Positions 692 to 33,356 are shown, counted from the stretch's first letter. The stretch is 64,000 nucleotides of DNA from Gemmiger formicilis (GCA_963612735.1 CAVDWX010000092.1:3439-67438), one strand, 5' to 3'. Notes: generated by a model not told the origin, from the sequence alone. Program-made: numbers and translations.

Positions 692-2044
692 TTTTGATTT
701 TCTTTATTTTTTAATAAATCGACTATTTATTCACCGATATAAATCGGGTCTACTCTTTCGCATTGCTTAGTCTTCGTTTCCTAAAAACTAACCACGTATC
801 AATAGTGGCGCTACTCCCTGCCTGTGGTCGGGGATAGTCTGTACAGGTTTACATATGATTGTTGTAAAATTGTCTTAAATAACTATAACTTTTATTGTTG
901 GCTATATCACGTATAGATTGCTCACTTAAATTAAATTTTTTAGCAATTAAGAATATTGGAGTTTGTAATGCTAACTCATCGTATATTTGAAATACTTGCG
1001 GAATTGTTAATTTTCCTGTAATAATACGAAAAGTTCGAATTGGATATTGTTCATTTTCTTGTTTTCAATTTTCCCCAATATTAATGCGATAAACTATTTT
1101 ATAAGTATATAATGGATTTAGCGCACAAATATCTTTAATAGTTATTGGTTCCTTAAGTTTTTTAATAATAAATTTTGCATCTTCCAAAGTTATTTTATGA
1201 TTTCCAAAATCTGGACGGCAAGGAATATTACGTACGATATGTTTTCAACTTTTAAATCTATTAATGTCTTTAACTACGTCTATTGTAGTATTATATTTTT
1301 TTGCGATATCTACTATAGAAGTTTGAAGATTAAAAGTTAAATCATTAATAATATCATAAACTTGTTCGGTAGTTATAGTTGCTCGATAACTATTTTCACC
1401 TGATAGTTTTTGAGAAACTATTTTCTTTTGGATATTTTTACTTTGCATTTCTAGACGAATCGGATATTGAATTCCATCTTGAGCATATTCTTCTCCATAA
1501 TTAATATGTTTAATCATAGCAGAAGAAACGCCATAAATTTGACCTATATCTACATAACTTAATTCAGTGTCTTTTAATAAATCATAAATAACGATAATAT
1601 CTGATTCAGTAAAATGAAAATATGGTTGATTTTTTCTGTTTTGTCCTCCAGTTTGCATATTGTATCCATTTGGCATTAATGAATTAAATGTTTTAATATA
1701 AAAAATTTCTCGTAGATTTAATTCTTCAATTTTACATTCTTCTAAAACAGTAAAGGTAAAATTTTCTATTCCATATTTTCTAATAGCCGCATGTAATAAT
1801 GTCGTAGCTCCGTTTTTAGCATCATATAAATGTCTTCGATAGCGACACTCAATATTTTTTGATTGTCCGATATAAATTTTATTACTAATTATGTTTTTAA
1901 ATTGATAAATACCTATCATATGTTTTCCCACGAGACTCAGTATAATTAACTAAGTTATCCTTTCTACGTCTATTATACTTTACCCTCGTTAGCAAATCAA
2001 ATTTTGATTTACCCCGTTGATTAACGGAAAAGTAGATTATGAGG
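692..2044 (-). mobile_element. group I intron 2 in the topoisomerase gene, carrying a GIY-YIG homing endonuclease ORF
   Basis: It lies between mini-exon 2 and exon 3. Its 5' end (cataatctacttttccgttaatcaacggggtaaatcaaaatttgatttgctaacgagggtaaag) and 3' core (cctgtacagactatccccgaccacaggcaggg at 720-860) are paralogous to introns 1 and 3. The ORF at 849..1931 is embedded in a loop. Confidence 0.6.
849..1931 (-). CDS. intron-encoded GIY-YIG homing endonuclease (about 360 aa, TGA=Trp read-through)
   Basis: N-terminus MIGIYQFKNIISNKIYIGQSKNIECRYRRHLYD... is a GIY-YIG motif. The frame runs through TGA at 1245 to ...QFYNNHM, giving a long C-terminal DNA-binding extension like I-TevI family members. 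Confidence 0.8.
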
Positions 2045-2119: not shown

Positions 2120-2385
2120 CGAGTACTGCAGCCTACTCGCTGACTATTTCTTCAGAAGGACTTTCCCTCTGTCTACTGTTTCGGTCTCTCAGACACTTCG
2201 TTTCCTAAAATGTCGACACGTATCAATAGTGTCCCTACTCCCCAACAACGGGGATAGTCGATACAGGTATGATGGCTTAACCACCTTCCCACGAGACTGG
2301 GCATATTTCTATGCTTTACCCTCGTTAGCCACTAATTAAGTGACCCCTTACGATAATAAGGTAAAATAGATAAGGGCAATTCGTT
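2120..2385 (-). mobile_element. group I intron 1 in the topoisomerase gene (no ORF)
   Basis: It separates ...ELFLTEG from DSAAGG. The exon ends in U and the intron ends in G. It contains gctaacgagggtaaagc, gagtctcgtggg and cctgtatcgactatcccc elements shared with introns 2 and 3. The in-frame stop immediately after the splice site is typical. Confidence 0.6.
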
Positions 2386-3673
2386 CACCCTCAGTCAAAA
2401 ATAATTCGGCATCAGAAAAGTCTGTGGCATCCGCAAGTTTAACCGGTAAGTCTTTTAAACTATTCATATTTTTCCCACCACGAGCAATTTTTTCTTGGGC
2501 TTCACGTTTACGTTGCGCGGCTTCTTCGGCTTTTTGTTCAATCATAATTTTATCAAGCACTTGTTTGGCTGCCTTCTTATCTAACACCATCTGACCAACG
2601 GCTTTACTACAAAAAGTTCGAGCAGATGGAGAGTTAAGAGTTAATTTTGTTTGTTCGCCAAATAGCGGACGTTCACTCATATGAATTGATAAAACTAAAA
2701 CTAAACCTTTACGAATAATATCTCCGCTTAGATTTTTATCTTTAATTAATTCCATTTCTTTTGCTAACTTATTTATATTGCTAGTAAAAGCAGTTTTCCA
2801 ACCAGTAACGTGTGTTCCATTATTTGGAGTATAACCTCCATTAACGAAACTATAAATTGTTTCATATGTGCGGTCGCAATAGCAAAATGCATATTCAACT
2901 TCACAAGTTTCACCGGCATCATTCTCTACTGTAGTATTAAAATAAAATGGGTCAGTTAATACTTTTAAATCGGCGGTTTTAATTTTTAACATATCTTTAA
3001 TACCATTAGTATAATAATAAGAAGCAGTTTCAATAACTTTCTTGTCGTCCATTACTGTTAAATTAAAACGGATACCATTATTAAGCAATGCGTGTAATTG
3101 TAATTCCTCCTTGATAGTTGGAATATCCCATTTTAAATTACCAAATACAGATGCATCTGGAATAAATGAGACAGTGCTCCCAGTCACATTAGTTTTAATA
3201 GGTTTAATAATTGGGTTAGTAAATACACCATTATTGACGGTAAAGATACATTGTTCTCCTTCTCGTGTTGATACTATTTCAAAGAATGTTGATAATGCAT
3301 TTGTAACAGTTGCACCTACACCATTTAATCCTAATGAGCTTTTATAATTACCTTGACCGGTAAATTTGCCTCCACTATGAAGATTAGTACACATCTCAAC
3401 AATTGCCCATTTACCTTCTTTATTGCGCTTAAAAGGTATACCACGACCATTATCTATTACAGATGCCATATTAGTAGTAGTGTTAATAGTGATAGTAATT
3501 TCTTTACCATAACCAGCCGCCGCTTCATCCATTGCATTGGCAATAATTTCAGTTAATAAGTGGTGCATGCCCTTAATATCGTTAGTGGCAATATACATTC
3601 CTATAGATTCTTTAACAGCATCTCGGTAATTTAAAGTTCTAATACTGTTTTCATCATATTTGACGTTATTCAT
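2386..3673 (-). CDS. DNA topoisomerase II large subunit, exon 1 (GHKL ATPase + transducer + start of TOPRIM)
   Basis: Carries the HATPase_c signature HHLLTEIIANAMDEA...IDNGRGIP and LHSGGKF, and ends ...KLADATDFSDAELFLTEG (GyrB LADC...ELYLVEG). Confidence 0.8.
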
Positions 3674-4442
3674 ATTTTTTTAATATTTCTCCTTTCATTT
3701 TAATAAAAAATTCTATTTGCTCATTATTTCAAGTATTTGGAAAAGTCCATCTACGTTCTCTTTTATGATAGATTGGCAAATGTTTCCAGTTTTGACCAGA
3801 TATAATGGAGACAATAGTTCTTTCTTTATAAGAAGAAAAATGCTCTATAATTTTTTTTCGTGGTCAAATTGTATATAATATTCTAATTTCAATTACATCT
3901 TGTTCATTAATAATATTTTGAGGATTTTTTTCTCCTAATTGACGAGTTTTTTCCTGTAAATGAACATATTGTTTTTCGTAAACTTCAGGCATAATATCTA
4001 AACGTACTTGTCCATTATAGACTTCAGCAATTAAATGTCTATCTAAATTAGGGAAAAATTGACGTTGAACTTCTGCTCCACTAGAATATTGTTGACTAGC
4101 ATAACATTCTCGAATTTTAATAATATCTTCATCTGTCAATAGTGACAAACTGTCTTTACTAGGACAAGAATAATATGACCCTCCAGGAGTTTGATTATAA
4201 CCATTTAAATAACTATTATAATATTGAATTCAATAAATCTCTCTTTCATTCAATTGTTCGCGAGGACATTCTTCAATAATTTCAAAAACAAAATTATTTA
4301 CACCTTCTTTTTTTATAGCATTATCAATGACACTATCTTGTCATCCTTTTAAATGAGAAGTTAAACGACGTTCTAATTCAATTGATTGCCCGATATATAT
4401 TTTATTATTAATTTTATTAGTAATTTTATAAATTCCAATCAT
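3666..4442 (-). CDS. free-standing GIY-YIG homing endonuclease (TGA read-through)
   Basis: Start MIGIYKITNKINNKIYIGQS is GIY-YIG. The frame runs through TGAs and ends 5 nt into the topoisomerase start codon region. The coding sequence includes the topoisomerase RBS. Confidence 0.7.
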
Positions 4443-4504
4443 ATGTATCTCCTTATACATTATAATATACACGCCATTAGATAAAATATCAAATTTTCCT
4501 TGTC

Positions 4505-4747
4505 TTACTTTCTCCTTTCATTTATACAATCTGCTATATCCTCTAAATCATTTTGATAATCATTATATGTTCCACAACACCATTGTGATATCATATGTGT
4601 AGCCGGATCTTCCCAAACTAAAGTATAACATTGCCCATAATCATCATAGTACAGCTCGAAACAAATGCCCTTACAAACTATTTCTTTCTCATAAGTAAAG
4701 ACACTATTGCATTGGTCTGCTAATAGTGGTAATTTATTTTTATCCAT
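4505..4747 (-). CDS. hypothetical small protein (80 aa, Cys-rich)
   Basis: Intact ORF in the early-region orientation. Confidence 0.4.
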   Translation of the reverse strand: MDKNKLPLLADQCNSVFTYEKEIVCKGICFELYYDDYGQCYTLVWEDPATHMISQWCCGTYNDYQNDLEDIADCINERRK

Positions 4748-4853
4748 ATCTTTATCCTTTCTTTAAAATAAAAGTTTTATATAACATATTGTTTAAAAAA
4801 TTAATGATTAATTGGTTTCAACACCCTTTCTTCATTTTTTCTTCTTACAATAT

Positions 4854-4882
4854 ATTATACAAAACTTTTTTCGATTTGTCAA
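4854..4882 (-). promoter_or_regulatory. sigma70 consensus promoter (TTGACA-17-TATAAT)
   Basis: Minus strand reads tttgacaaatcgaaaaaagttttgtataatat. Confidence 0.7.
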
Positions 4883-4982
4883 ATTTTTTTCTAAAGTTTT
4901 ACTCAGCACTGATAAAATGAAATAAAATTAGTTCAAATTTAATACTATTTTTCTTTCTCATCAAGCGCTTGGTGTTTTTGGT

Positions 4983-5500
4983 TTAAAAATTTAACAGCAT
5001 ATTCTCCACATTGAGTGGCGGCATCTTCGAATCAAGCGCCGTCATATGGTGCTCATTCCTTATTAGGGAACCAAGTGCGCAACCAATAACGAGTAGCACT
5101 AGGAATCGCAACGATAAGCGGGAATAACGGGCCGAATAAACAATTTTGAAAAGTATGGCCAAATTCGTGCCAATCAATTCCTTCAACAGTTGACTCTTGA
5201 TCTCGCAAGAACATTAATCCCATTTCACATCCACCTCACCAATCAGGACCTACGTTAATGCCGTAAATCCAATAGAATGGTTTAAAAGTAATTTTGTCAG
5301 GAATAAAAATTTTAACAATGGCAAGAATGACTGTAATAATGATGCCTAAAATCGTCATAATAATTCCCCACGTACAAGCAGTTAAATAATACAACCATCT
5401 GTGTTTTAAAACGAATTTAGTTCATTTTGCACACAAATTAAACATAAAATTGCCAATTTTTGAATGTTCATATAAAGGTTTAATTTCCATAATTTCTAAC
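4983..5500 (-). CDS. hypothetical membrane protein (TGA read-through, Trp-rich)
   Basis: Frame continues upstream of ORF 4983..5186 through several TGA codons. It encodes hydrophobic segments. The boundaries are approximate. Confidence 0.4.
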
Positions 5501-5506
5501 CTCCGC

Positions 5507-6166
5507 CTAATTTTTTTCATCTAAATAAATGTAACGATGTCCGTGGAATTTGTAGCCACGTCGTATCGCTCTGGAAATGTGAGTAGAAGGAGCATGATAT
5601 TGATCTGCAACACTTTTTACTGATGGGTAAATACGAATAATATCTCCAGTTTCGGATACTTCAGCTACTTGTCTATATTTTTTATTAAGAGGAACAGCAA
5701 TTTTTTCTTCTTTATTGAAACTCCAGAAAAACCCTCCTGTTTGACTAAAAATTCCTTTGCAAGTTTTTAAAATATTTTGATGTAAACAACCTGTTACACG
5801 TTCAGCTTCATTAGCGCTAACAAACTCATTAATGAAATTGCCTTGTAAATCGTATTGATAAACAGGTGTCTCTAAAAAATTTCCGCAGTCTCCTCCTTTA
5901 GTGCTATTATAACCATTGGTATAAGAATCATAATATTGAATGTAATAAATTTCTTTTTCATTTAATTTATCTTGAGGAATATTTTCTTCTATAGGTTCTA
6001 TTGAAAACTTGTCTATTCCATATGCACGCATTGCTCGATACAAATGAACATCTGAAAATTTACTATAACAACAATGCTGATCTCATCTTCTTTTTAATCG
6101 TTGAATGGTTTGCCCTATATACACTTTATCATTTACAGTGTTGGTAATTTTATAAATCATTCCCAT
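5507..6166 (-). CDS. free-standing GIY-YIG homing endonuclease
   Basis: N-terminus MGMIYKITNTVNDKVYIGQTIQRLKRRWDQHCC has W encoded by TGA in the conserved RW-x-x-H position. It overlaps the end of the permease gene by 17 nt. Confidence 0.75.
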
Positions 6167-7508
6167 TCTCATTCTTTTTGTCCTTTAAAATTAAATTCAA
6201 AAAGATACCAATAATCATAGCTAAAGCTACGCCAGTAAAAGTAAAATTACCAATTGGAACAAACAACCCTCCAACTCCCGAAATTAAAATAATAGAAACA
6301 ATTAAAGTATTTTTTGTATTTTCTAAATCAATCTTTCTCAATTCTTTCAATCCGCTAATGGCGATAAAACCATATAAAATTAATGCGCATCCGCCAAACA
6401 CACAATAAGGAATTGTTTGAACCCATCACATTAAAGGAGCAAATAGTCCTAAAATTATAGCTAAAATTGCGGCTCCAATAACCGGATATATACTTCCAAC
6501 CTTAGTAATTCCGATAACTGCGATATTTTCTCCGTAAGTAGTATTGCCCATACCACCAATAAAACCTCCTACAGCGGTGGCAATGCCATCACCCAAAGCT
6601 GTTTTGTCTAAACCGGGTTCTTCTAATAGATCTTTTTGAATAATATTAGATAAATTTAAATGATCTCCTATATGTTCGCAAAAAGCCACACAACTAACTG
6701 GAATTGCTATCAATAATATTTGAGGAATTTGACTTCAAGTAAAGTGATTATATTTAAAACCTTTAAAAGCCTCAATAAAAGAAAATTTAGGCAATCATTT
6801 CAATTTTGCACCAAAAGAAATCAATTGCATTGATTCATTTCCACAACTCTTTCCAATCAAGGTTAAAATTAAAGCCAATATGTATCCTCCTATAATAGCA
6901 ATTAAAAACGGCAATGTTTTGAGCAATCCTTTACCATAATAAGATAATAATGCAACAATTAACATTGTAAAGATAGCTACTAATAAAGATCAACCATTAA
7001 AATCGATTAATCCGTTTTGCATGCTCCAAGAAGTTGCAAATCCAGCGAGGCCTAAACCAATTAAAGTTACTACAGGACCTACAATAACGGGAGGTAAAAT
7101 TTTATGTAATATATTTGCACCAAATTTTTTAACTATTAAACTTAATAGCATATAAACTAAAGCTACAACAGTTAACCCTAAAATTAAAGCAATGTAATTA
7201 CCACCTGGTTCTTCAGAAGCTCCAAATCCCATAAATAAACAAGCCGACATAATGGGCATAAGGGCCGCGCTTGAACCTAAAAAAACAGGGCTTTTGAATT
7301 TAGTAATAAAAGCATAAATAATTGTTCCAATACCTGCGCTAATAATAGCAGCAGGAACCATTTCAAAACTTTGATAAGTTAAAATAGAAATTAAAGATGT
7401 AGCAACGAACATTGCCAAGCAGTGCTGAATACTATACAATATGATTTCTTTTTTAGAAGGTTTATCTTGAATATCATAAAGTAAATTCTTATTTTTATTC
7501 ATTTCCAT
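6150..7508 (-). CDS. uracil/xanthine permease (NCS2 family, UraA/PyrP-like)
   Basis: Three ORF fragments join in frame through two TGA codons. Contains EHIGDHLNL...ALGDGIATAVGGFIGGMGNTTYGENIAVIGITKV, a close match to the UraA core. Confidence 0.75.
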
Positions 7509-8031
7509 AATCCTCCTTTAGTACCTTAACTAATTCATCACTTGAACAAACTAATTTACCATGAGTTTTTATGGCACCTGTTAAAAATATATTAACATAA
7601 CTCATCTGAGCTTCGCCCGGTTCTTTTTGCATGGCCGCCAATTTTTGTTGGCCAACTTCTCCTTGGCAAGTTAAGAAACCTTCTCGGCAATCATCGTAAA
7701 GAGCATATAAATTCTTTTTTGGGTCGGCGTCAATCATTTGAGTATAAATGCCTATTTCACAAGTGGTTCCTATTGGAGGAGTATCGTTACTGATTACTGC
7801 AATTAATAAATCTGTTTCTTTTAATCGATTATAATCCCCTCAATAAATATCATATGAGGTAGCACATTTTGTTTTATCATTTATATTTTTATTACGATGA
7901 GGAACATAAATTTGTGCATTTGGGAAAATAGGTACTAAACGTTCGTATAATCAATCAAGATACATTCGGTCTTTTTCAGTAAAAATTGGACCGGCTAAAT
8001 AAATTCTATTTGCAACCTTCTTACTATTCAT
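7384..8031 (-). CDS. nucleoside 2-deoxyribosyltransferase-like protein (NDT/Rcl family)
   Basis: N-terminus MNSKKVANRIYLAGPIFTEKDRMYLDW... carries the YLAGPxF motif of PF05014. Two internal TGAs are read as Trp. The 3' end is uncertain because TGA at 7495 is read through in code 4. Confidence 0.55.
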
Positions 8032-8368
8032 CGGCCGCCTCCTCTGCCCTACTTAAACGGTCTAATTCAATTAGAAACATTACGGCGTAGCAGGCCAAAT
8101 CTTTTACGGTGTCTTCAACGCTTTCGAAGTCATTATGTCCACCCTTAATTAAATTTGTAATACGATCCAATTTATTATGCAAAGGAACCAAACCGGCGAT
8201 AGGACCTAAATCATCAATTAGGCGGCCAAAACTGTCTCCGTAGTTTGAATTTTTCTTCTCATATAAATCAGCCATACGATTTACAATAAGTCTAAATTTT
8301 TCAACTTTTTCTTTGTTTGTCATTTTCGTCTCCTTTAAGTTAAATTTATTTCTACTTATATTATACAA
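8024..8368 (-). CDS. MazG-like nucleotide pyrophosphohydrolase
   Basis: Small all-alpha protein with EKFRLIVNRMADLYEKKNSNYGDSF...DLACYAVMFLIELDR, similar to house-cleaning NTP-PPases. Confidence 0.5.
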   Translation of the reverse strand: MYNISRNKFNLKETKMTNKEKVEKFRLIVNRMADLYEKKNSNYGDSFGRLIDDLGPIAGLVPLHNKLDRITNLIKGGHNDFESVEDTVKDLACYAVMFLIELDRLSRAEEAADE

Positions 8369-8374
8369 TGTAAC

Positions 8375-8415
8375 TAGACTAAAGTCAAAAAAGGCGCAGG
8401 AAAATTTCCTTCCCG
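8375..8415 (-). terminator. rho-independent terminator candidate
   Basis: Hairpin aggaaattttcct inside a GC clamp, followed on the minus strand by CTTTTTTGAC. Confidence 0.4.
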
Positions 8416-8419
8416 GCGC

Positions 8420-8623
8420 TTAATTTTCTTCTTCTTCTCTGCGGCGACCATTCCAATACTCAAGCACTGGATCGGCAGTTGGCAAGTAGTGAACTATCTT
8501 AGGTTGCCAAGCAGTGATTTTTTCGCCGCTATTGATCTTGTGATTCTTAGAACAACATGAGAAACTGGTTGTTCCAATCAAAAGAATTAGTAAACCTATT
8601 AATGTTCTTTTTAATCTAAACAT
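8420..8623 (-). CDS. small secreted protein / putative lipoprotein
   Basis: Signal-peptide-like N-terminus MFRLKRTLIGLLILLIGTTSFSCCS. Confidence 0.45.
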   Translation of the reverse strand: MFRLKRTLIGLLILLIGTTSFSCCSKNHKINSGEKITAWQPKIVHYLPTADPVLEYWNGRRREEEEN

Positions 8624-8625
8624 AA

Positions 8626-9042
8626 TTATGATAATTGCTCCTCAATTTTTAATTTTGTATCATTCATTTTTGCGACACCTGTTAAATTATCAGCCCGAGT
8701 AATTGTTACAGAGTCATCTTTAAAGATAGGTTGTGTAATACTTGGTTGATATATAGCTGGTTTGCTGGTGCCACCTATACCACTAGCCCAATTATCATTG
8801 ATAGTAATAGTATTGGCACGTCAAGTTTCTATAAATTTATTGCATTTTAACTGTATTTTAAAATTTTCTAAATCAGATAAGGTTGTTTCTTTCTCGTTCA
8901 TATCTTTGATAAAGGCTTGAAATTTTGATTGATATTTACATACTTCATAATGTACGCATAATGTACATTTTACTGGTTCAATAATAGCCGATAATTGTTG
9001 AACATCGCTATTGTTGTTGTTATTATTTTTCTTCGTTGCCAT
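8626..9042 (-). CDS. hypothetical protein (TGA read-through)
   Basis: ORF 8821..9042 continues through TGA to the TAA at 8626. Confidence 0.4.
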
Positions 9043-10126
9043 GATTTGTTATCGCTCCTTCTATCCCATCTTCAGCTAATCTTAATTTTACAAGGTAAGG
9101 ATGACGCAAGCGTCCTCGATCGTTGTAACTCATTGCTTTTACTACAGCAAAAAGGTTTCCTTTTTTAATATCTTCAGTTGCAGAAACTAACCATTCTCTG
9201 TCTTCATCGGTTAGACCACTTGTTACTGAAGTTGTGTTTCCATCTGGCAGCTGAACCACAATGCCATTTGCCCAGCCATAATAATAAGGCTTAGTAACAG
9301 GTTCCCAGTCTGTCCATGGGTCATTTAACTCCACTGCAGATGGAGTTCTGATTACTAATTTTTTTTCTCCGCTATCAAGATAAGAGACTTCCCAATAAGA
9401 CCAATTAGAAGGATTTTGACCTTCGTATTCTCTCTTTGGTACTAAGACTCCAATTACTGGTAGCTCCATTTCTTCTAAACTTTGTTTTAATTTCAAAGTT
9501 TTCCATGCGGTACGAGTTCCTGGTAAGTAGGGGTTATCCTTACGTTGAATTACTACTCCTTCTCCACCTGCCGAAATAATTTGGTCTGCATGTTCAGCAA
9601 AGTCATTGGTAAAAATGGCAGTTGGTTTAAAGTAGTGATTAGATAGTTGTGAAAGAGCTCCTAAACGTTGCTCATATGGTGTGTTAGTTAAATCTTGATT
9701 ATTATACATTAAGACATCAAACATTAAACCATATAGCTTGTTCTCTTTTTGTCTTTCAACTGCCTTTGGTGGTAAACAACGTAAGATGGTTCCAACTGTA
9801 TTAGCATTAGTGCCGTATTCGTTCCAACAAATCTCTGCTAAGACAACAGTATTGTCTGGCCAAGTGTCCATTTCTTCAGTCAGATGAGGAAGTTTAGCAG
9901 TGTAATCTCCATATGCACCTGTGACTTTGCTGATGCTTCTACTGTGGATTAAATTATTGCCTTTAGAAAAATGAGCAAAAAGTCCAAAATCTCCATCATG
10001 CTTTTCTGTGGCTATATAAAGATTATCTTTGTTGTCAATCATAGCTTGACGTTTAAGGTTAGAATCATCTTCATTATTATAATATTTCATAATTGGCATT
10101 TCGTAGGCTATATAATGAATGTCCAT
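9023..10126 (-). CDS. ATP-dependent polynucleotide ligase (DNA or RNA ligase, nucleotidyltransferase superfamily)
   Basis: Motif I ATEKHDG (KxDG), motif IV GGEGVVIQ, motif V AWKTLKLK. Arg is absent after KxDG, so an RNA-ligase-like identity cannot be excluded. Confidence 0.6.
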   Translation of the reverse strand: MDIHYIAYEMPIMKYYNNEDDSNLKRQAMIDNKDNLYIATEKHDGDFGLFAHFSKGNNLIHSRSISKVTGAYGDYTAKLPHLTEEMDTWPDNTVVLAEICWNEYGTNANTVGTILRCLPPKAVERQKENKLYGLMFDVLMYNNQDLTNTPYEQRLGALSQLSNHYFKPTAIFTNDFAEHADQIISAGGEGVVIQRKDNPYLPGTRTAWKTLKLKQSLEEMELPVIGVLVPKREYEGQNPSNWSYWEVSYLDSGEKKLVIRTPSAVELNDPWTDWEPVTKPYYYGWANGIVVQLPDGNTTSVTSGLTDEDREWLVSATEDIKKGNLFAVVKAMSYNDRGRLRHPYLVKLRLAEDGIEGAITNHGNEEK

Positions 10127-10173
10127 AAGTGTCTCCTTTCTAAAAAAGATAAAAGATTAATTATTTATAATAT

Positions 10174-10202
10174 ATTATACTAAAAATTTTTCGATTTGTC
10201 AA
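10174..10202 (-). promoter_or_regulatory. sigma70 consensus promoter
   Basis: cttgacaaatcgaaaaatttttagtataatata on the minus strand, a perfect -35/-10 with 17-nt spacer. Confidence 0.7.
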
Positions 10203-10209
10203 GAGAATT

Positions 10210-12333
10210 TTAAAATTTTGGTTTATATCTTACTAAACGCATATTTAGACTGTCAATATCGAAAATAGTCCTGCTGTATGTAAAAACTCATAATGAGTTA
10301 TCAAAAGTTTTTGATAGTGGTATTCAACTGATAGGATTTGAAAATCCGCTATATTCTGCAATTACTACATCTTTTTGGTCATCATAATCGTCTGGTATAT
10401 CGAACTTAAAGATACATTCGGTAAGTTGATCTCCTTCTTTTTTTTCAATTCTGTCTGTTGTTCATATGTCAATATCTCAATCTTTTTGAAAATTTTTACA
10501 TATAACAGGTTTTAAATATTGTTGATCTGATTCATATTCAAGATTATGTAAGGCCGCATAAAAGAAATTCTGTGAAACATAGGATCATAGACCTATGAAA
10601 GTCTGTCCTTTTTTTTGAAAAAGAGCATTATATGGTTCTCCACCTGAAGAAACATTTGTTTCCATTTGTCCTAAATTTTCATTTCATTTAAACTTACCTG
10701 TTTGGAGTGAATCATAGGTTCAATAATTGCCTACAAAATCATTAATTGTAAAACTCTGTTTCAAACCTTTATTTAAGGTTTGCATTAGTGGACAATAATA
10801 AGGAAAGTAACCAGGTTTTAAAGGACGAATACCTGAATAAAATTTTAAATATGATTGGTATCAACCTTTGTTAGCAGGCAATCATGCATAAGCAAAGCAA
10901 TAGCTCTCTCCGTTTTTACGATATTCATCAGAATTAATATCATCTACTTGTGGTTCAAAATCTTTTTCTTGAATTTGAGTTATTTTAATAATCGGTTCTT
11001 TGACAATCGTACAAAGTAAAGTGAATTTTAAAGAATCAGTACCGTTAGATGGATTTAAAGCACCATTGCCCACTACTACATATTTTGGTGTTGGCTCTTG
11101 AGTATTTTTGTATGTAGCATAACATTTATTATCAAAATTAATAGTTAAGATACGACTTTGAGATTCTAAAATTAGTTTTGATAATAAATAGTCTCGAAGA
11201 CTTTCTTCGCCTTGTATAATATGTTGATTAAGGTTATCTCGACCATGAATAAAATTTTCAAAATTTTCTCTTGGAGAGAGTAATAAAAACTTTCAATTTA
11301 CATCACTAAAGTCTAGTTGAACTTCTAATTTATCCTGAATACCTAAATAATGTCCAAGCTGAATTTGCATAGGAGTACTCCTTTCAGTTGAAATTGTTAC
11401 TCCTGCATTATTAGAAGCACTAAATTTACCTGAGGAATTGAAAGGATCAAATCCTCTAATACATTTTCACGTTCCCGGATCATGAGAACATAACAATAAA
11501 ACATCTTGTTCAACATTAAAATCACTAGAGGTCTGAAAAATATCGGTTGTATAAGAAAATTGATCAGTAGCTTTTAATTTTAACTTATCATCTTCAATAT
11601 TTGCAGTAAAACCTTTTCAATTATCTGCATTTGGGATATCAATAGCTATTCAAACTGGAGAACTTAAATGTCAATCAGTATAATAAAGATTTTGACCTTT
11701 TGAATCTTTATCTCGAATATCACTATAAGTATTTATTTTTTGATCTTCTTTTTCTGTTTTAGTCCAATTAATTAAATTAATTGCTTTTCCTCGTATTTGC
11801 ATAGTACCTCAATTTGATCGTTCGTACAAATTAGGATACAGAATATTAGGTATATTTGTATTTTTATGATATACAGTTCGATTAGCATCGGGAGTAACGT
11901 AATTTCTAGAATATGCATTTTGTAATAAGCTTCTATTCTGCCAACGATAAGTATCTAATCATAAAGTTTTGCTAGCAAATCCTACATCATCAAAGTAATA
12001 AGTGGTACGAATGCTTCCTGATGATGAACCAACAGGCTTTAAAATAAAAACACCATCTTCTTTATACACTATTTGAACAGAACTTCCATTGGCATTTTTA
12101 AATTTTAATAATTCACAAAAGGGATCTTTTGCAGTAATTTCTATTTGGCTTCCTTGACCACTTACAACTGTGATGCTGTTATTTTTTATATCGCTATTAT
12201 CAAAATATCCTTTAAATTCAACTTTTTGAAAAGAGAATGTTTTTTGAATTAAATCAGGCAATTCTTCTTTAGTTTTATTTTCAAACAAATTAGTTGTCTG
12301 TTGATTGTCATAATAAATATACTCATCAGCCAT
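10210..12333 (-). CDS. large hypothetical protein (about 707 aa, many TGA=Trp codons)
   Basis: Single continuous frame from MADEYIYYDNQ... to ...NMRLVRYKPKF when TGA is read through. No recognisable domain. Confidence 0.5.
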
Positions 12334-16061: not shown

Positions 16062-18845
16062 ATGATTACAATGATTAAGCAAACAAGCAATACTAAAAAG
16101 CTTTCCAATTTTCGTATTTCAACTTATGATGCGAAAATCACCACACCTGATAAAAAAACTGTAGAAATCATATATAATTCCTACGGTGTGCCAAATTTAT
16201 CTGCGGTTGACTTAGGTCTTTACGGAGACCGCAACGTTACGATATTAAAACTTAATTTCAAAGATTTATTATGGAATACGGCAGATGCAACAAATTATCA
16301 GATTAGTTTATTTGTGGATGGAAATAAAGTAGACACTTTTTTTGAAATGGATAATACATATCCTATCGTAACTTATCCTATTGATACAACTTCTCTGACT
16401 GTTGGAACTCATGAATTTGCAGTTTCAATTATGGAAAAGAGTAAAACGAGCGGTTCAAATATTGATATTAATCAAGAAGTATACTTATGCCGTTCTTTTA
16501 ATGGTACGGTTAATGCTAGTGATTTTTATGAAGCAGCCAATACTTTTGATTTTGTTGGCATTTCAAATAAAGGTTTACGTAGACATCAAATAGAAGTAAT
16601 GCTTGCAGATGATGGACAATTTGCATTAAAACAAGCAATAACAAGTGATGAGCAATTTAGCACTGATTTGGGTATGCAATATGACCGTTTTGTTAGTTAC
16701 ATCTGTTTTAATGAATCAAGTGATATCACTGGAAAGGTAACAAATTTAGATAAGTATATTGTTTTTCAAAATTTAGCTTTAAGCACCAATTACTATGTTA
16801 AACTTAATACAACTAGCGGCCATCAACATGAAACAGAAGATACTTTAACAGCATGAGTACCCGCAGAAGTTACGGAAGTTGCCGGAGCTTGAACTATTTA
16901 TTTTGTAGGAGTAAATGAAGACGAGTCAATTAGATTTGTAAGCCGCAGCATCTCATTAACAGTGTTGCCAACAACAATTCCATATGCCGAAGTAAATCCA
17001 GAGCGCGGCATCAATATTCCTGTTACGTTTGAATTATCGTTTTATTACGTATCAACTTCAACAAAAGTCGTCGAAGCTTGTGCCATTTTAAAAGATGAGT
17101 CTTTAAGCGCACTAGCAGAGATTACTAACACAGAGAAAGAAGTTTACTTACGACAAGGTGAAACATATATTCTTGAATTATATCCAGAAGGTGAATGAAG
17201 CTATCAAGGAGGTAAAGTAATCCGAGAATCTAGAATTATTTATACTGTGCCTAAAGACGCAACTGCAGATACTTTTACTGGAACATATGAAATAACCGCT
17301 GAACCACCAATTCAAGAACTAATGATTACACCTACTGAAGAAGACCAAGTTTTTAACAAAGAAGGAATTGATGGTTATAAACCAGTAAATGTTTCAGCAA
17401 TTCAAACAGAAACTCCAAGTGTTGATTTATCTCTTGCAAGTGGAAATCAAACAGTGAATGCTACTAGTGGAAAATATATAAAATCTCTTACTATTAACAA
17501 ACCTAGTACTTTAATTGCAGCAAATATTAAGAAAAGCGTGGTTATTGCAGGAATAACGGGTACTTATGAGTTTAAAACACAAAATAAAACTTTTACACCA
17601 ACTCAAACAGGAGGTTCAGTCAGTGCTGATAGTGGTTATGACGGTTTAGGTGTAGTCGCTGTTAACCCCGTACCACTTAGTAATAAAACAGATGTTTCTT
17701 TAAACTTCTATAATCAAAGTGCTGGAACAATTGCAGATAGTCAAAATATCTATTCTGACGCAAATAAATTCATGACTTGGGCAAGTGTTATTCGTCCTGA
17801 AACTTTGATTGCTGAAAATATTAAAAAAGATATTATAATAGCAGGAATTACAGGAACATTAGTAGGAGAAGATTTACCAGTTTATACAGGATTATTAAGA
17901 TTTAGTACAGCACCTACAATTAGTTTAAGTGGATCAACATTAAGTTGGGAAGCGATAGAGGGAGCAACAAGCTATGATATTTACAAAGACAATGCTCTAT
18001 TAAGCAATGTAACTACAACAAGTGTAGATTTAAGTACGCTAATTACAACAGCTGGCACTTATGCAATTACAGTTAAAGCCAAAGCAAGTAACTATGCTGA
18101 TAGTGAAGCAAGTAATAGTGTTAACTATGTGGTTCCATCAGCGTATAACGTAGTATTACCAAAAGCATATACCAATACTAATGTTTATTGTGCCTATTCA
18201 ATAGATGATGGTGTAACTTGGGTTGAAATGAAAACTGCTACTACAATACAAACTACACAAATTAAATTTAAAAATGTAGGGAACTCGAGCTATCACTATT
18301 CTTTATATTCAACATTGTTAGGAATGACATTATATTATGGCAAAACTTCTCAAAATTACATATTAACTCAAGATATTACAGATATTCAAGTTGATTACTA
18401 CGTTACTTGTTTAACAGGAGATACTCTAATTACAATGGCAGATAATTCACAAAAACAAATTAAAAACGTACAAATTGGCGATTGTGTACTTTCTTTAAAT
18501 GAAAACGGGGAAAAGGTAAGTAGTAAAGTTTATTATTCTGATGCAAATGAATATAAGACAGCATCTTATTATGACTTATTTATATTCTCTGATGGTACGG
18601 AAATCAAAGTAGTTAGAAGGCATAGATTTTATAACAATAGAACGCAAAGTTTTATTCACTTAGATGAATTTGAAGTTGGCGATAAAACTTATAAAGAAGA
18701 TGGAACTTGGGTTGCACTAATAGATAAAAAATACAAAGCAGAAGCAGGAGTTATTCGACATTTTACTATCTTCTGTGAACATAATACATACTTTGCAAAT
18801 GGTTTACTTGCAGGCAATAAATATAGTGATAAATTAATTTTATAA
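16062..18845 (+). CDS. tail fibre-like protein (about 927 aa) with C-terminal intein/Hint module
   Basis: Four ORF pieces share one frame across TGAs. Residues about 785-910, CLTGDTLITMADN...IFCEHN, form a mini-intein-like Hint module ending HN followed by T. Confidence 0.6.
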
Positions 18846-19738: not shown

Positions 19739-20944
19739 ATGAGTATTACATCTGTTTATAAATACACGAACGATAGTTGAGTAAAACTAAAAGCCTTTCA
19801 AGCAACTAGTGATGGAAATTGAAATCAAGTTAGTTCTACTACTACTCCTATAACTAGTACCGTTGATGCCTTTTTAGTAGATAGCGCTACAAATTATGCC
19901 TACTTTACCACTATGCTTGGAGGCGGCAATGGCACTTATACTGCAACCACAACTCTTGGTTCCGTAAGCATTGAAGGCAATGTCTTAGAATTATATGTTT
20001 ACTCTGCCGGAAGTGGTACTTGTACAATTACTTCAGGTGAAGCAACATTAGAAATTCCAATATATGTCGGATATATTGAATGCTTAGTAAAAGATACTCT
20101 AATTACTATGTGAGATCGCACGCAAAAGCCAATTCAAGATATTCGAAATGGCGATTATGTGCTTTCATTAAATGAAAAAGGTGAGGAAGTACCTGGATAC
20201 GTCTATTACGCAGATGGCGATCAATGCAAGACAGGTCAACATTATGACCAATTTACCTTCTCGGATGGCACTGTTGTGAAAGTTGTTCATCGTCATAGGT
20301 TTTACAACAATTTTGATAGAACATTTACTCATCTGGATAATTTTTATATCGGAGATAAATGTTATAAACAAGACGGGACTTGGGTTACTTTGGTAGGAAA
20401 AATTGATCGTGCCGAAGAAGGTATTATTCCTCATTATACAATTTTCTGTAATAATAATACATATTTTGCTAATGGGCTACTTTGCGGTAATCGTTTTAGT
20501 AAAAAGGTAAAATTGATTGATCCAACCATTCCGGCTGAACCTACTTATAGTTGACAACCAGTGGCACGAAAATTTCCAGATGACTTTAAAGTATCAAAAA
20601 TTTGAGTAGACAGTAAAGATAAAGATATTTATATTGAAAAGAACGGTCAAGCGATTAATTATATTCAAACTGACAACAATGAAGCCAAAATGTTTTTATA
20701 TCAATATAATGGTGAAAAAGATTATCATAATATTACTTTAGAAGAATTAGATACAAACGCTGAATTGGTATTAGAAATTACTGAATATGACACGCAATAT
20801 GATATAACCAATTTAATTTATAATTATATTTTATATTATGAATACAAAATAGACCGCATTTCTCCAATAGCAACAATAAGTATTGAGAATGCGGGGGGGG
20901 TGTCAACATTGAGATGAGGAGGCAGCAGTCCTTTAGGAAAATAA
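19739..20944 (+). CDS. tail fibre-like protein with internal intein/Hint module (about 401 aa)
   Basis: Single frame through TGAs. Hint module CLVKDTLITMWDRTQ...IFCNNN, then conserved TYFANGLLCGNRFSKK (paralogous to the C-terminus of 16062..18845), then a further 120-aa C-terminal region. Confidence 0.55.
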
Positions 20945-23007: not shown

Positions 23008-23034
23008 AGAGGCCATTAAGGTCTCTTTTAATTT
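23008..23034 (+). terminator. rho-independent terminator
   Basis: agaggccattaaggtctc hairpin followed by TTTTAATTT, directly after the last plus-strand fibre-block gene. Confidence 0.6.
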
Positions 23035-23127
23035 GGCAGGGGATCCAGGAGTCGAACCCGGTTCGGAGGTTTGGACGCTCCTACGATGATTTTGAAGATC
23101 ACTGGCCAGAACCGTTAGCCCAATCCC
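23034..23127 (-). tRNA. tRNA with anticodon UCA (reads UGA) and long variable arm
   Basis: Minus strand GGGGATTGG-GCTA-ACGGTTC-TGGC-CA-GTGAT-CTTCAAA-ATCAT-[GTAGGAGCGTCCAAACCTCCGAA]-CCGGG-TTCGACT-CCTGG-ATCCCT-G-CCA. The T-loop is TTCGACT, the discriminator is G, CCA is encoded, the anticodon loop is 7 nt with U33 and A37, and the variable arm is about 23 nt. Confidence 0.6.
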
Positions 23128-23162
23128 CTGTAAGGGATGAGTACCTATCGTCGCAAATTAGT

Positions 23163-23459
23163 CTTACGTTTGTAAGGTGCTCAAGTTTGATTGTACCCTT
23201 TTGGCGTCATTGTTTGAAGTTTCTCTATTCAATACTTTTCACGCCGATTAAGGTCTTTGATAGAACACATCTCCAATACATCTCAACGAAAGAAAGTTTT
23301 GTTTCTCTTAAAATCTCTTTGCATCTGTTTGTTTGGATGTGTTCCCTTTTGTAGGGAATGAAGATGTTGGTCTCTGCGACGGGGAAGATCGTCAGTTTGA
23401 CCAACATACTGTTTTCCGCTTTTCATATTGGTGATTACATAGATACCGCTAACGGCCAT
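23163..23459 (-). CDS. minimal GIY-YIG domain protein (98 aa)
   Basis: MAVSGIYVITNMKSGKQYVGQTDDLPRRRDQHL... It has two TGA=Trp codons, its GC content and codon usage differ from neighbours, and it sits directly beside the tRNA. Confidence 0.6.
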
Positions 23460-24723: not shown

Positions 24724-25215
24724 CTACTTACCACTTGAACCTAATTTGCCTTCACCACGTTCACTACGAGTGAGTGCAGATTGATATTCTTCGTCGGAAG
24801 CAATAGTAGTAATCACATCAATACGATATTCAGGTATTAATTGAGCAATACCTTTACTAATTGGATAATAACCCTTACCTTCTTTAACTGTCCATTTGTC
24901 TACTCCATCAGTAATAATAACATCATAATCATTAGTATTGCATAAGGCAATAAAAATCTCGCCCATATATTGCTCGTCAATAATACCACAATGAATGTGA
25001 AGACCTTTTGAACCAGTACTGCCTCTATCAGCTGCTCTCAACCAGATATGGTCAGGAAGAATAACTTTTAATCCAGTTGAAATCATTACTGTTGTATGAG
25101 CAGGAAGAATAGTAGGCTCAATTGCATAAACATCAAAACCTGAATCACTATCTCTCTTAGTGGGAATAATTGCTTTTTCATTACAAGGATACCATTTAAT
25201 AATTTTTTCTTGCAT
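24724..25215 (-). CDS. dut: dUTP diphosphatase
   Basis: dUTPase motifs SGFDV, RGSTG, GIIDEQYMGEI and C-terminal RGEGKLGSSGK. Confidence 0.8.
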   Translation of the reverse strand: MQEKIIKWYPCNEKAIIPTKRDSDSGFDVYAIEPTILPAHTTVMISTGLKVILPDHIWLRAADRGSTGSKGLHIHCGIIDEQYMGEIFIALCNTNDYDVIITDGVDKWTVKEGKGYYPISKGIAQLIPEYRIDVITTIASDEEYQSALTRSERGEGKLGSSGK

Positions 25216-27135: not shown

Positions 27136-27393
27136 TTATTGATTTTGAACTCTTTTTAACATAGCCGCATAGCATTTTTCGCTTTCTTCCTTGAATGCTT
27201 TTTCAAAAGGTGTTTCGGCAGATGCGAAAATAATGTCATGCAAAGACTTATAATGACCCATTTCTTCAGTAGCGATATGGTGAAAAGTTGCTCTTTTAGC
27301 CTTATCGTCACATTCTTCTTCTAATTCTAGGTAGCTATAAAAGTCCGCCTTTTCTTCATGTAATTTTTCAATAAGTTCGCTAATAATCTTCAT
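27136..27393 (-). CDS. hypothetical protein (possible ferritin-like/HxxxE helical protein)
   Basis: ORF 27136..27477. The internal Met at 27393 avoids a 98-nt out-of-frame overlap with 27380..27583. Confidence 0.35.
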   Translation of the reverse strand: MKIISELIEKLHEEKADFYSYLELEEECDDKAKRATFHHIATEEMGHYKSLHDIIFASAETPFEKAFKEESEKCYAAMLKRVQNQ

Positions 27394-27583
27394 TGAAACG
27401 TTCTCCCAGCCATGCTTGAACGCATGCGTTAAAACCAGACTTAACTTCAAATACGAATACAGTTTCTCTTTCTGCACCTCTTTTTGGTTTTAAATCAACG
27501 ATAATATAACCGTTTTGTAATAACCATTGCGCTAATTGCGGACTAAAAATTAATTTTGTTTTATTCATTTGTAAAATTCCCAT
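27380..27583 (-). CDS. hypothetical small protein
   Basis: Intact 67-aa ORF MGILQMNKTKLIFSPQLAQWLLQNGYIIVD... Confidence 0.35.
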   Translation of the reverse strand: MGILQMNKTKLIFSPQLAQWLLQNGYIIVDLKPKRGAERETVFVFEVKSGFNACVQAWLGERFNEDY

Positions 27584-27902
27584 TCCTTTCTTTATTAAAC
27601 CTTTCTTTAAATAATTTAATTTTATCTTCTACCTCTTGTGCGGCAAAAGCTCCTAATTGTTCAGTATTAAGAGATTGACCTTCTTGCTCCATAAAAGCAC
27701 TAACATAAGGGTCTATTAATTTGATAATATAATTACCAATGACTCCTCCAAACATACCCAGCATCGGCACTCCTGATACTAAGTTTTGAATTTCCCGATT
27801 TAACATACTATATAATATTTCTTTATCTGATGGACCATTACTTGCGGCGGCCGTTGCCATCGTTTGTGTTGGTACTTTGCGTTGAGACGTTTGTCGTTCC
27901 AT
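27561..27902 (-). CDS. hypothetical protein
   Basis: Intact 113-aa ORF. Confidence 0.35.
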   Translation of the reverse strand: MERQTSQRKVPTQTMATAAASNGPSDKEILYSMLNREIQNLVSGVPMLGMFGGVIGNYIIKLIDPYVSAFMEQEGQSLNTEQLGAFAAQEVEDKIKLFKERFNKERNGNFTNE

Positions 27903-28326
27903 TGATTAATTCCTCCAATTCTTTAATTTGTTTTTGTAGTGCAAGATTTTCGGTTTTAATCTTGCTAACATCTTCAATAGTTGATGTTCTAAATTTACCA
28001 CGTGCATTTTTCAATGCTATTAGCACCTTTTCTGCGCTTGCACCATATTTTGAATTAATAAACTGCAAGCCAAATTGGTCTAATAAAAATGAGTTAAATT
28101 GTTGTGCATAATCAATGTTTGCTCTCATATAATCTGCATCTTGTTCAATAAATTGTCTTTCATCTTCAGAACAGGAATTCCATTCATCTGCAATATCATT
28201 AAATACAGTTCTATATTGATTATAAGGTGTAGGTTGTTGGGCGGCTTTTAAACGTAATAATTCTTCATACGTGTTAGACGCCCCGCCTTGAGAAAACTGA
28301 GGTCTCCCTGGCATATAACTATTCAT
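27838..28326 (-). CDS. hypothetical protein with C-terminal coiled coil
   Basis: Intact 162-aa ORF. Confidence 0.35.
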   Translation of the reverse strand: MNSYMPGRPQFSQGGASNTYEELLRLKAAQQPTPYNQYRTVFNDIADEWNSCSEDERQFIEQDADYMRANIDYAQQFNSFLLDQFGLQFINSKYGASAEKVLIALKNARGKFRTSTIEDVSKIKTENLALQKQIKELEELINGTTNVSTQSTNTNDGNGRRK

Positions 28327-28392
28327 GCTTCTTGCATCCTTTCATGAATCGGGTAAGCAGGTGGTGGTAAACCCCACCACCCAAAAAGTAAA

Positions 28393-28842
28393 CTAAGCGG
28401 CCGTTACAGTAGTAATAATTACTCCGATCAAAGTGCCGGCTGCATTATAAATTCTAACTGTTGTTACGCCAGCAGCCACGCCTGTAACAGTGATAATATT
28501 GTTAGCCACGGTCGCAGTTGCAGTAGCAACAGTTTCAGGTGTAGCAGTAGCTGCTCCATCAAGACCAACTGATGCAGTCTTGCCAACTTCAATAGATACT
28601 TGATATGTTGCAGGAAATTTCCCTTTAACAGTAACGGTTTGAAGTGTACGATTAGCTCCAGATGGAGTAACCGTTTGGATGACGTTAGTTGGTGTTACAA
28701 TTGGTGATTCAGGCAGTTTGCCTGCTAACAACCAACGATAAACAGGAGAGCTGTTTAATGTGCATGACTCATGTCCATAAGTGATGGCACTTAGACAGTA
28801 ACCATAAGGATGAACTTGAGAATATTCTAATACATTAAACAT
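28393..28842 (-). CDS. hypothetical protein with T/V/A-rich repeats and hydrophobic C-terminus
   Basis: Intact 149-aa ORF. Confidence 0.35.
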   Translation of the reverse strand: MFNVLEYSQVHPYGYCLSAITYGHESCTLNSSPVYRWLLAGKLPESPIVTPTNVIQTVTPSGANRTLQTVTVKGKFPATYQVSIEVGKTASVGLDGAATATPETVATATATVANNIITVTGVAAGVTTVRIYNAAGTLIGVIITTVTAA

Positions 28843-28853
28843 ACATCCACCTC

Positions 28854-29486: not shown

Positions 29487-29632
29487 GTTTTCGGCTCAGA
29501 ATCGTTTTCATGTTTAGGAAGGTAATTTACAAAGAGTAAAATAATTCATTTCTTATTTTACATTATAATTATATTGTATTTTCCTTTCTTTTTCAAATTT
29601 AGGGTGAAGATAATTAGTGCTATAAAATGATA

Positions 29633-29977: not shown

Positions 29978-29984
29978 CCTTGGT

Positions 29985-30058
29985 GTCCCCGATGAGAGTC
30001 GAACTCATACTAAGCAGGTTTTGAATCTGCTGCCTCTGCCAATTGGGCTACGAGGACA
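29985..30058 (-). tRNA. class I tRNA with unusual anticodon loop (anticodon CAA, or UCA if the loop is 9 nt)
   Basis: Minus strand GTCCTCG-TA-GCC-CAATTGGCAGA-GGC-A-GCAGA-TTCAAAA-CCTGC-TTAGT-ATGAG-TTCGACT-CTCAT-CGGGGAC-A-CCA. Acceptor and T-arm are canonical. Anticodon stem has an A31-C39 mismatch. Confidence 0.55.
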
Positions 30059-30067
30059 TTGGAGAGC

Positions 30068-31206: not shown

Positions 31207-31218
31207 AATAATTCCTCC

Positions 31219-33353: not shown

Positions 33354-33356
33354 ATA

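Follow-up and report, generated by a model that had tools for sequence, protein, structure and literature searches.

The DNA described here is a stretch of 64,000 nucleotides from Gemmiger formicilis (GCA_963612735.1, CAVDWX010000092.1:3439-67438), referred to as the window in the following, and it belongs to a gut phage that uses TGA as a sense codon (genetic code 4). On the minus strand of the window we found a compact unit of three genes, encoding a DUF1599-family protein, a homologue of nucleoside 2'-deoxyribosyltransferase (NDT) and a nucleobase permease of the NCS2 family. The unit can best be understood as a phage salvage operon, in which a nucleobase imported by the permease would be grafted by the NDT onto deoxyribose derived from the host, the base most likely being uracil or a close pyrimidine; we put the probability of this reading at roughly 0.55. 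An earlier note on the same DNA had proposed a pyrimidine salvage module of permease, NDT-like protein and MazG-like enzyme extending to position 8368. A third gene is indeed present there, but the TTG at 8368 is not its start, and the true coding sequence is 8024..8323. The unit consists of the following features:

8397..8415, minus strand: terminator-like hairpin with a stem of eight pairs, followed by CGCCTTTTTT (T run)
8360..8388, minus strand: promoter-like site of the sigma-70/SigA type, TTGACT-17 nt-TATAAT, with 11 of 12 matches
8024..8323, minus strand: DUF1599-family protein, 99 amino acids, no in-frame TGA, ATG start behind AAGGAG
7495..8031, minus strand: NDT homologue, 178 amino acids, two in-frame TGA, motif YLAGPIF
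6150..7508, minus strand: NCS2/NAT nucleobase:cation symporter, 452 amino acids, four in-frame TGA and two TGG; an alternative start at 7502 gives 450 amino acids

Read with the standard bacterial table 11, the permease region consists of four open reading frames (ORFs) split by the four in-frame TGA codons. With code 4 it is a single ORF of 452 amino acids without any true stop, confirming the full-length permease with TGA read as tryptophan that had been predicted earlier. The protein matches PF00860 with 230.2 bits (cut-off 27) over profile positions 2-387 of 389 and is thus a member of this family. TIGR00801 gave 252.9 bits, below its cut-off of 291.8, and the NCBIfam models ranked uracil permease (270.1 bits) before RutG (186) and xanthine permease (157). 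Among solved structures, E. coli UraA matches best (E 2e-54), in an alignment that takes in UraA residues 8-407. In UraA, Glu241 and Glu290 bind uracil with their side chains, Phe73 and Gly289 with their backbone amides and Ser72 by way of a bridging water; Tyr342 or Ile345 of the gate domain also takes part, and His245 and Glu241 are the candidates for proton coupling (PMC5539350). Ser72, Glu241, Gly289, Glu290, Tyr342 and Ile345 are kept in the phage permease as S80, E278, G326, E327, Y379 and I382. Helix 10 reads E327-N-I-A-V-I-G-I-T-K, with E327 invariant and N328 nearly so among the 120 best relatives; save for Ala in place of Gly at position 4, it fits what we take to be the NAT signature of this helix, [Q/E/P]-N-x-G-x-x-x-x-T-[R/K/G]. 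The phage permease therefore has in common with UraA (PDB 3QE7, 5XLS) the full-length alignment, six residues of the uracil site and the Glu-Asn start of helix 10. It differs in being encoded by a phage, in containing TGA codons, in forming an operon with an NDT, and in the two site residues and the lower score discussed below. Judged from these alignments, it represents a distinct NCS2 subfamily, and its pocket looks uracil-like.

The second protein had been recognised by its YLAGPIF motif as an NDT-family member adjoining the permease. This was confirmed by the match to PF05014 (40.9 bits, cut-off 28.8), and PHROG 1817 was matched as well. The sole strong sequence match in the PDB is the Enterococcus faecalis enzyme EfPDT (7M5H, E 2e-19). 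A Foldseek search with a structure model, made from the 94%-identical protein P0121, also returned EfPDT first (E 1.6e-11, TM 0.70/0.77), followed by DpNDT and CtNDT, whereas DNPH1 and MilB were distant fold matches (E approximately 2e-4 to 1e-3). EfPDT is a tetrameric type I NDT that accepts purine 2'-deoxynucleosides only, and its active site comprises Tyr5, Asp60, Asp80, Glu86, Asn130' and Tyr132' (PMC12372993). These residues map to Y11, D66, P86, E92, N147 and F149 of the phage protein, and all but P86 match in kind. The catalytic glutamate, essential for the earlier assignment, is Glu92 in the sequence GTTCEIG and is invariant in 57 relatives, as are Y11, D66 and N147, while P86 and F149 are invariant or nearly so. 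The phage NDT has in common with EfPDT 32% identical residues in the structural alignment, the catalytic Tyr, Asp, Glu and Asn, the insertion between beta4 and alpha4 and the aromatic residue of the N-x-aromatic motif; it departs from it in having Pro86 instead of Asp80 and approximately six additional residues inserted after the catalytic helix.

The order on the minus strand is promoter-like site, DUF1599 gene, NDT gene and permease gene. The stop of the DUF1599 gene overlaps the NDT start by 8 nt, and the NDT stop overlaps the permease start by 14 nt or, with the second ATG (7502) as start, by 8 nt; a ribosome-binding site of the AGGAG type precedes each of the three genes. The promoter-like site is the best one between 5400 and 9200 and precedes the start codon of the DUF1599 gene by 37 nt, and the hairpin is placed such that it could close the upstream gene and insulate the unit; the total of such promoter- and terminator-like sites in the region is not above that of shuffled controls, and the evidence for both is thus their position. 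Together, the overlaps, a promoter-like site of their own and the invariant neighbourhood of NDT and permease (see below) show that the genes form a module, as the earlier note had supposed. Rfam at gathering thresholds returned only tRNAs, both in the window and in the two Clostridia loci with the nearest permease homologues, and thus no riboswitch or leader that would hint at the substrate. Just upstream of the hairpin, an ORF of 67 amino acids (8420..8623, minus strand) starts with a lipoprotein-like signal (MFRLKRTLIGLLILLIGTTSFSCC…) and has no Pfam match.

In every related locus examined the NDT gene is located immediately upstream of the permease gene. These loci are on approximately 13 distinct gut-metagenome contigs, many of them 100-137 kb long (window and L015; L001/L002; L003/L007; L006; L008; L009; L017; L019; L026-L028; L029/L030; L031/L032; L034 and L033, with two contigs binned into metagenome-assembled genomes). 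In most of them the two genes overlap or abut, although the permeases of these contigs are just 41-72% identical and the genes around the pair vary: a ligase and gyrB in some, NrdD-NrdG in others (as in L017, from a Hadza gut sample, where the pair follows these genes), or an aminotransferase, dUTPase and FolD. A dUTPase gene is found within 5 kb of the pair in L003. The DUF1599 gene is directly upstream of the pair in about half of the loci and nearby in two. At two chromosomal loci of Clostridia, the homologous permease gene adjoins ssb and there is no NDT gene. Depending on the clade member, the permease gene contains 0 to 7 TGA codons. The dN/dS values of 0.07-0.38, which are rough because synonymous sites are saturated, indicate purifying selection. 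TGA codons, conservation throughout the clade and purifying selection show that the genes are native to the phage, in agreement with the earlier note.

Three of these loci have peculiarities of their own. In L029 (136.6 kb; 3785..9004) a class V aminotransferase gene overlaps the NDT start, and the pair is followed by genes for dUTPase and FolD (methylene-tetrahydrofolate dehydrogenase/cyclohydrolase), neighbours that link the pair to one-carbon and thymidylate metabolism. L033 has a G+C content of 49%, showing that the module is also present in a much more GC-rich genome; here (3974..6824) the permease matches in two pieces (4299..5453 and 6177..6824), which could be due to an insertion, an intron or a frameshift. 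L017 (1029..3413 and 9012..11723) encodes a UvrD-type helicase with intein-type domains (weak matches to Hom_end_hint and LAGLIDADG_3) and an NrdD distributed over several ORFs.

Homologues of the NDT, 29-36% identical, are also encoded by cultured phages with related terminases, and here the downstream gene varies:

Lactococcus phages AM1 and WRP3: NDT, then PnuC-family transporter (PF04973), then NrdD
Geobacillus phage GR1: NDT, then PQ-loop membrane protein of 93 amino acids (PF04193)
Geobacillus virus E3: NDT, then thymidine kinase
Bacillus phages PBC2 and vB_BcoS-136: NDT, then class I ribonucleotide reductase (NrdE)

AM1 and WRP3, which belong to the 949-group, and GR1 share the NDT subfamily with the window (31-36% identity), and the carrier gene follows directly after the NDT gene (within 2 nt or overlapping). 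As in the window, the pair lies among genes for replication and nucleotide metabolism, and the phage is a large siphophage of Bacillota. The carriers of these three phages are from families unrelated to that of the window, a 14-helix NCS2 permease for free bases; their NDTs retain the Asp aligned with Asp80 of EfPDT, whereas the window NDT has Pro86. PnuC and PQ-loop proteins share a SWEET-like fold. In the phage lineage of the window, the NDT is thus combined time and again with a small-molecule carrier, the carriers being from three families; no other observation argues as strongly for a carrier that feeds the NDT. A similar situation is known from lactobacilli, in which an NDT redistributes deoxyribose among bases during salvage. 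The deoxynucleoside salvage of these bacteria (NDT and a predicted PnuN) follows the same logic, namely uptake of a preformed DNA precursor and redistribution of deoxyribose; their pathway is cellular and imports nucleosides, whereas the version in the window would be viral and import a free base. PnuN is the subgroup of PnuC-like proteins that is predicted to carry deoxynucleosides (PMC7749635).

The proposed pathway would start in the host membrane, where the inserted permease would use proton symport to bring in a free nucleobase present in the gut lumen; the most likely candidates are uracil and closely related pyrimidines, for example thymine. The NDT, made from the same message, would then use Glu92 as nucleophile to move the 2-deoxyribosyl group from a deoxynucleoside to the imported base. 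Donor deoxynucleosides could stem from the breakdown of host DNA together with the action of the phage NT5C-type nucleotidase, a candidate supplier. A thymidine or deoxynucleoside kinase would pass the product on to dNTP synthesis for the AT-rich genome (approximately 33% G+C), and the DUF1599 protein may prepare or sanitise the nucleotide, perhaps as a dNTP pyrophosphatase. Since both the NDT and the permease gene contain TGA codons, the two proteins would be made only once the tRNA(UCA) of the phage (see below) is active. Three genes of nucleotide metabolism that the earlier note had placed elsewhere in the window were all found:

24724..25215, minus strand: dUTPase (PF00692, 57.9 bits), taken as context only, as part of a dTTP-directed gene set
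50070..50585, minus strand: NT5C-type 5'(3')-deoxyribonucleotidase (PF06941, 43.8 bits, cut-off 24.8)
32335..33255: thioredoxin-reductase-like flavoprotein

Several observations weigh against the proposed pyrimidine salvage. The second active-site Asp of EfPDT (Asp80, six residues before the Glu) is replaced by Pro86 in all permease-linked NDTs, whose loop reads (S/D)-G-D-x-P-P-I-G-T-T-C-E-I-G with an invariant Asp83 three residues before Pro86, whereas EfPDT and five of six aligned cultured-phage NDTs have D-G-x-x-I-D-x-G-V-x-x-E-I-G. The Asp at this position presumably binds the 5'-OH of the sugar in the L. leichmannii NDT structure, and sugar substrate or chemistry of the phage enzyme may thus differ from those of a classical NDT; the loop with Pro86 and Asp83 was modelled with low confidence. 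The permease stays far below the cut-off of the UraA equivalog model NF007995 (270.1 against 477 bits), and it has A81 at the position of Phe73 and D282 at that of His245. Both changes are common to the Clostridia relatives, and the EHIGDH motif that results from the second one is invariant in the 120 best permease relatives, phage and bacterial; the contact of Phe73 in UraA is made by the backbone, and His245 is the proton-coupling candidate. No kinase or thymidylate synthase family was matched among the window ORFs scanned (ORFs shorter than 95 amino acids and about a dozen ORFs of the structural module were outside the scan), and in several clade members no DUF1599 gene is located within 10 kb of the pair. 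In addition, the closest characterised NDT uses purines only, which does not match a uracil-type importer unless the specificity has shifted. In a purine version of the pathway, the permease would import a purine such as xanthine, hypoxanthine, guanine or adenine and the NDT would work as a type I enzyme, for instance to convert deoxyguanosine to deoxyadenosine for an AT-rich genome. The strict purine specificity of EfPDT speaks for such a version, and so does the presence of its beta4-alpha4 insertion in the phage NDT, since this insertion has been ascribed to the group 2 enzymes, among them the purine transferases TbPDT and LmPDT (PMC12372993). Furthermore, the NDT motif NIF is closer to the NLY of EfPDT than to the NLM of other NDTs. 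Helix 8 of the permease contains E-x-x-G-D, unlike the E-x-x-G-H of UraA, and we take the former to be the pattern of xanthine and urate transporters (XanQ E272/D276, UapA E356/D360). The motif of helix 10, however, begins with Glu-Asn as in UraA, whereas xanthine and urate carriers presumably have Gln-Asn there; the NCBIfam scores place uracil permease ahead of RutG and xanthine permease; and the homologous NDT gene of Geobacillus virus E3 adjoins a thymidine kinase gene, that is a gene for a pyrimidine deoxynucleoside kinase. At approximately 32-36% identity, the specificity of EfPDT is not transferable to the phage enzyme. We favour the pyrimidine version and rate it roughly two to three times as probable as the purine version, which we consider rather unlikely; the reasons are the residues kept in the permease, the ranking of the NCBIfam models, the thymidine kinase gene beside the NDT gene of E3, and the dUTPase and FolD genes next to the pair in L029. 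The term pyrimidine used in the earlier note is plausible from the conserved uracil-contacting side chains of UraA, but the equivalog score, the two replaced residues and the purine specificity of EfPDT keep it from being proven.

The Pro at the Asp80 position also means that the 5' substituent recognised by the NDT may differ, and it might be that the enzyme mainly works as an N-glycosidase on a deoxynucleoside or deoxynucleotide, like DNPH1 or MilB, so that an unwanted nucleotide is removed and the permease handles the released base, or that it depletes one deoxynucleoside, as put forward for NDTs of diaminopurine phages. The DUF1599 protein and NT5C could feed such a pathway, and a preprint describes a phage NDT that prefers deoxyadenosine and proposes a depletion role for it (10.1101/2025.10.22.683976). 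Still, a degradative or depleting role is improbable. The folds of DNPH1 and MilB match far more weakly than that of EfPDT (see above), and the phage protein has Y-L-A-G-P-I-F-T-E and Pro86 where DNPH1 presumably has the phosphate-binding loop G-S-I-R-G-G after strand 1 and, six positions ahead of the catalytic Glu, a Ser. UraA and other characterised NCS2 carriers couple import to protons (PMC5539350), and supply explains better than disposal why the NDT of cultured phages is accompanied by importers of other families. The earlier note had also raised non-canonical base metabolism. In such a route, an unusual base would be imported, joined to deoxyribose and finally built into virion DNA to shield it from restriction. 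NDTs are promiscuous towards base analogues, the active-site loop of the NDT and the pocket of the permease both differ from the characterised enzymes, FolD and a class V aminotransferase are encoded beside the pair in one relative (L029), and the Pfam description of PF07659 is "Nucleotide modification associated domain 1". This label is the sole hint from the Pfam scan of the window ORFs. The scanned ORFs and the listed 10-kb flanks of the relatives yielded no PurZ, no DpdA, no homologue of thymidylate synthase and no enzyme for base modification, the changes in the permease are common to ordinary chromosomal genes of Clostridia, and the presence of a dUTPase argues against uracil DNA. We therefore do not uphold this part of the earlier proposal and regard such a route as very unlikely. 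Finally, the permease could be a host gene captured recently, without any functional tie to the NDT, since its nearest non-phage homologues are chromosomal genes of Clostridia (approximately 45% identity) and mobile GIY-YIG endonuclease genes flank the unit. This is already disfavoured and highly improbable: the pair remains adjacent despite the divergence of the permeases and the differing neighbours, the TGA recoding that varies by gene points to a long residence in phage genomes, and dN/dS is well below 1.

The DUF1599 protein reached 20.5 bits with PF07659 (DUF1599), less than the cut-off of 25, and matched PHROG 1485 with an E-value of 4.9e-26. It has 295 relatives; among the 120 of them that were listed, the identity does not fall below 64%, and a PF07659 match is precomputed for many. 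Invariant residues include K24, N25, N27, Y28, G29, E67, E70, D71 and D75. The structure model consists of four helices (pLDDT 89.8), and the top Foldseek matches were YpjD, DCTPP1 and HisE with non-significant E-values of approximately 1. No MazG Pfam family was matched, and the PDB contained no sequence match even at an E-value of 10. The resemblance to the all-alpha nucleoside triphosphate (NTP) pyrophosphatases MazG, DCTPP1, YpjD, HisE and AF_0060 is a weak one of fold only; AF_0060 we take to belong to this superfamily in SCOP. Judged from the model, an ancestry in the all-alpha NTP-pyrophosphatase (MazG-like) superfamily is possible. The earlier label of a MazG-like NTP pyrophosphohydrolase is thus loosely supported, as a reasonable guess with regard to the fold, and the family to be named is DUF1599.

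The code of the phage is evident from the window as a whole. Added together, the ORFs with 100 or more amino acids reach 16.1k amino acids with table 11 and 22.6k with code 4, in-frame TGA codons occur at tryptophan positions, and ARAGORN found a tRNA with the anticodon UCA:

23034..23130, minus strand: tRNA(UCA); Rfam tRNA-Sec RF01852 with 43.8 bits, E 1e-7, just below the gathering score

In a codon-level alignment of permease genes from eight phage and two Clostridia loci, the TGA codons of the window at W173, W238 and W258 correspond to TGG in relatives, and the column of W258 is also TGG in one standard-code bacterial permease gene. At three further columns, bacterial permease genes have TGG where other clade members have TGA, and W238 and W258 align with Trp of E. 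coli UraA. The tRNA(UCA) is presumed to be the reader of the in-frame TGA codons and hence to be needed for the translation of NDT and permease. It is built like a bacterial tRNA-Sec, with an acceptor stem of 8 bp, a long variable arm and a T stem of 5 bp, and unlike tRNA-Trp; an ordinary tRNA-Trp(CCA) is encoded at 33280..33353. TGA nevertheless aligns with Trp codons of relatives, and the shape of the tRNA does not settle which residue is inserted at UGA. TGA is distributed very unevenly: all genes in the blocks 27136..36479 and 38652..42264 are free of it, and between 27136 and 51217 it is limited to three short ORFs. NDT and permease genes are recoded, their neighbours for DUF1599, ligase and UvrD helicase are not, and an ORF of 707 amino acids without Pfam match (10210..12333) contains 16 TGA and 2 TGG. 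Code-4 gut phages infecting hosts with the standard code have been described previously, and the window fits that picture (10.1101/2021.08.26.457843).

The large terminase shares approximately 33% identity with its counterpart in Geobacillus virus E3; further relatives are the terminases of the gut phage Phass-1 and of large siphophages of Bacillus, Brevibacillus and Lactococcus. The window further encodes a capsid protein of the YonB family, PhoH, a sigma-70 factor, RNase H, a UvrD-type helicase and an ATP-dependent ligase. No integrase was found among the scanned window ORFs; this and the cultured relatives would be in line with the lytic lifestyle assumed by the earlier note. Approximately 10 kb of sequence beyond the right end could be added from L014, a contig of another sample that is nearly identical to the window; it continues with a tail-tube protein, which has a faint YomU_Tube match, a glutaredoxin-like gene and an anaerobic NrdD (L014 6516..8625), and the latter fits an anaerobic host.

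GIY-YIG Pfam matches are located on the minus strand at 3666..4460, 5507..6172 and 23145..23459, and a fourth ORF outside the scan (849..1919) has a GIY-YIG-like N-terminus. The GyrB ORF (2348..3673, minus strand) represents the N-terminal half of the protein and ends inside the Toprim region (…FLTEGERIAL…), suggesting that the gene is split by an intron or an endonuclease insertion, as in L003, L019 and Lactococcus phage AM1; Rfam at the gathering threshold revealed no group I intron in the window. Two proteins of the tail-fibre region (16062..18845 and 19739..20944, both plus strand) share a Hint/intein-like segment (C-L-x-x-D-T-L-I-T-M … N-G-L-L-x-G-N), with a weak, sub-threshold match of the second one to PF01079 (Hint, 22.6 bits).

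Relatives of the permease are numerous in the range of 46-92% identity, and contigs of 84-130 kb carry several of them; among the listed matches below approximately 47% identity, those named or examined are Clostridia or chromosome-sized contigs. A close homologue was not found in 50,697 GenBank phage records, where all matches were at most 37% identical; these were not counted as phage cargo, as they are mostly in unannotated records, many of only a few kb, and the match in VT2-Sakai was rejected because it lies under genes annotated as wrbA and pyrP. A pattern scan of IMG/VR gave seven loci, of which three are clade contigs and four are unrelated. Two of the latter were set aside as host DNA flanking a prophage: L010, where an integrase is found beside cellular genes (HAD hydrolase, DJ-1/PfpI), and L011, where the sole neighbour scanned is an aldo-keto reductase. 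The other two, L012 and L013, represent a different phage lineage, in which the permease is adjacent to a protein of 178-184 amino acids without an NDT profile match. Their NCS2 permeases (L012 9770..11608, L013 9418..11254) are 33-35% identical to that of the window and adjoin a conserved MA(I/K)LKLSAPW… protein; a DUF2828/DUF7788 vWA protein of L012 resembles the window protein at 34114..35637. The permease is thus indeed unusual cargo for a phage, as the earlier note had stated.

TGA recoding is already known from phages, and so are NDTs, dUTPases and nucleotidases. A limited literature search revealed nothing on a conserved operon of phages in which an NCS2 nucleobase permease and an NDT are coupled, or on the pattern of NDT and carrier. 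It likewise gave nothing relevant on the function of DUF1599, on phage permeases for uracil or of the NCS2 type, on phage members of PF00860 or on phages that combine NDT and PnuC. It would be a bold guess, and one with little probability, that cassettes of NDT and transporter are a general and so far unrecognised device by which large Bacillota phages build deoxynucleosides from material taken up during infection, and that the clade-specific site changes (Asp to Pro, F73A, H245D) mean that a non-canonical base is installed by salvage and not by modification after replication.

The TGA recoding of NDT and permease shows that recoding reaches genes of nucleotide metabolism, beyond structural and lysis genes. 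In cultured phages, genes labelled "PnuC-like NMN transporter" (nicotinamide mononucleotide) may really stand for nucleoside uptake. NDTs are used for making nucleoside analogues, so the enzymes are also of practical interest. The nucleotide genes of phages usually encode soluble enzymes that rework the internal pool of the host. If the salvage operon proposed here is real, gut phages would also draw on extracellular bases, and their replication would depend on the supply in the gut lumen; since Lactococcus and Geobacillus phages that have been cultured encode an NDT beside PnuC-type or PQ-loop carriers, this idea can be tested in the laboratory.

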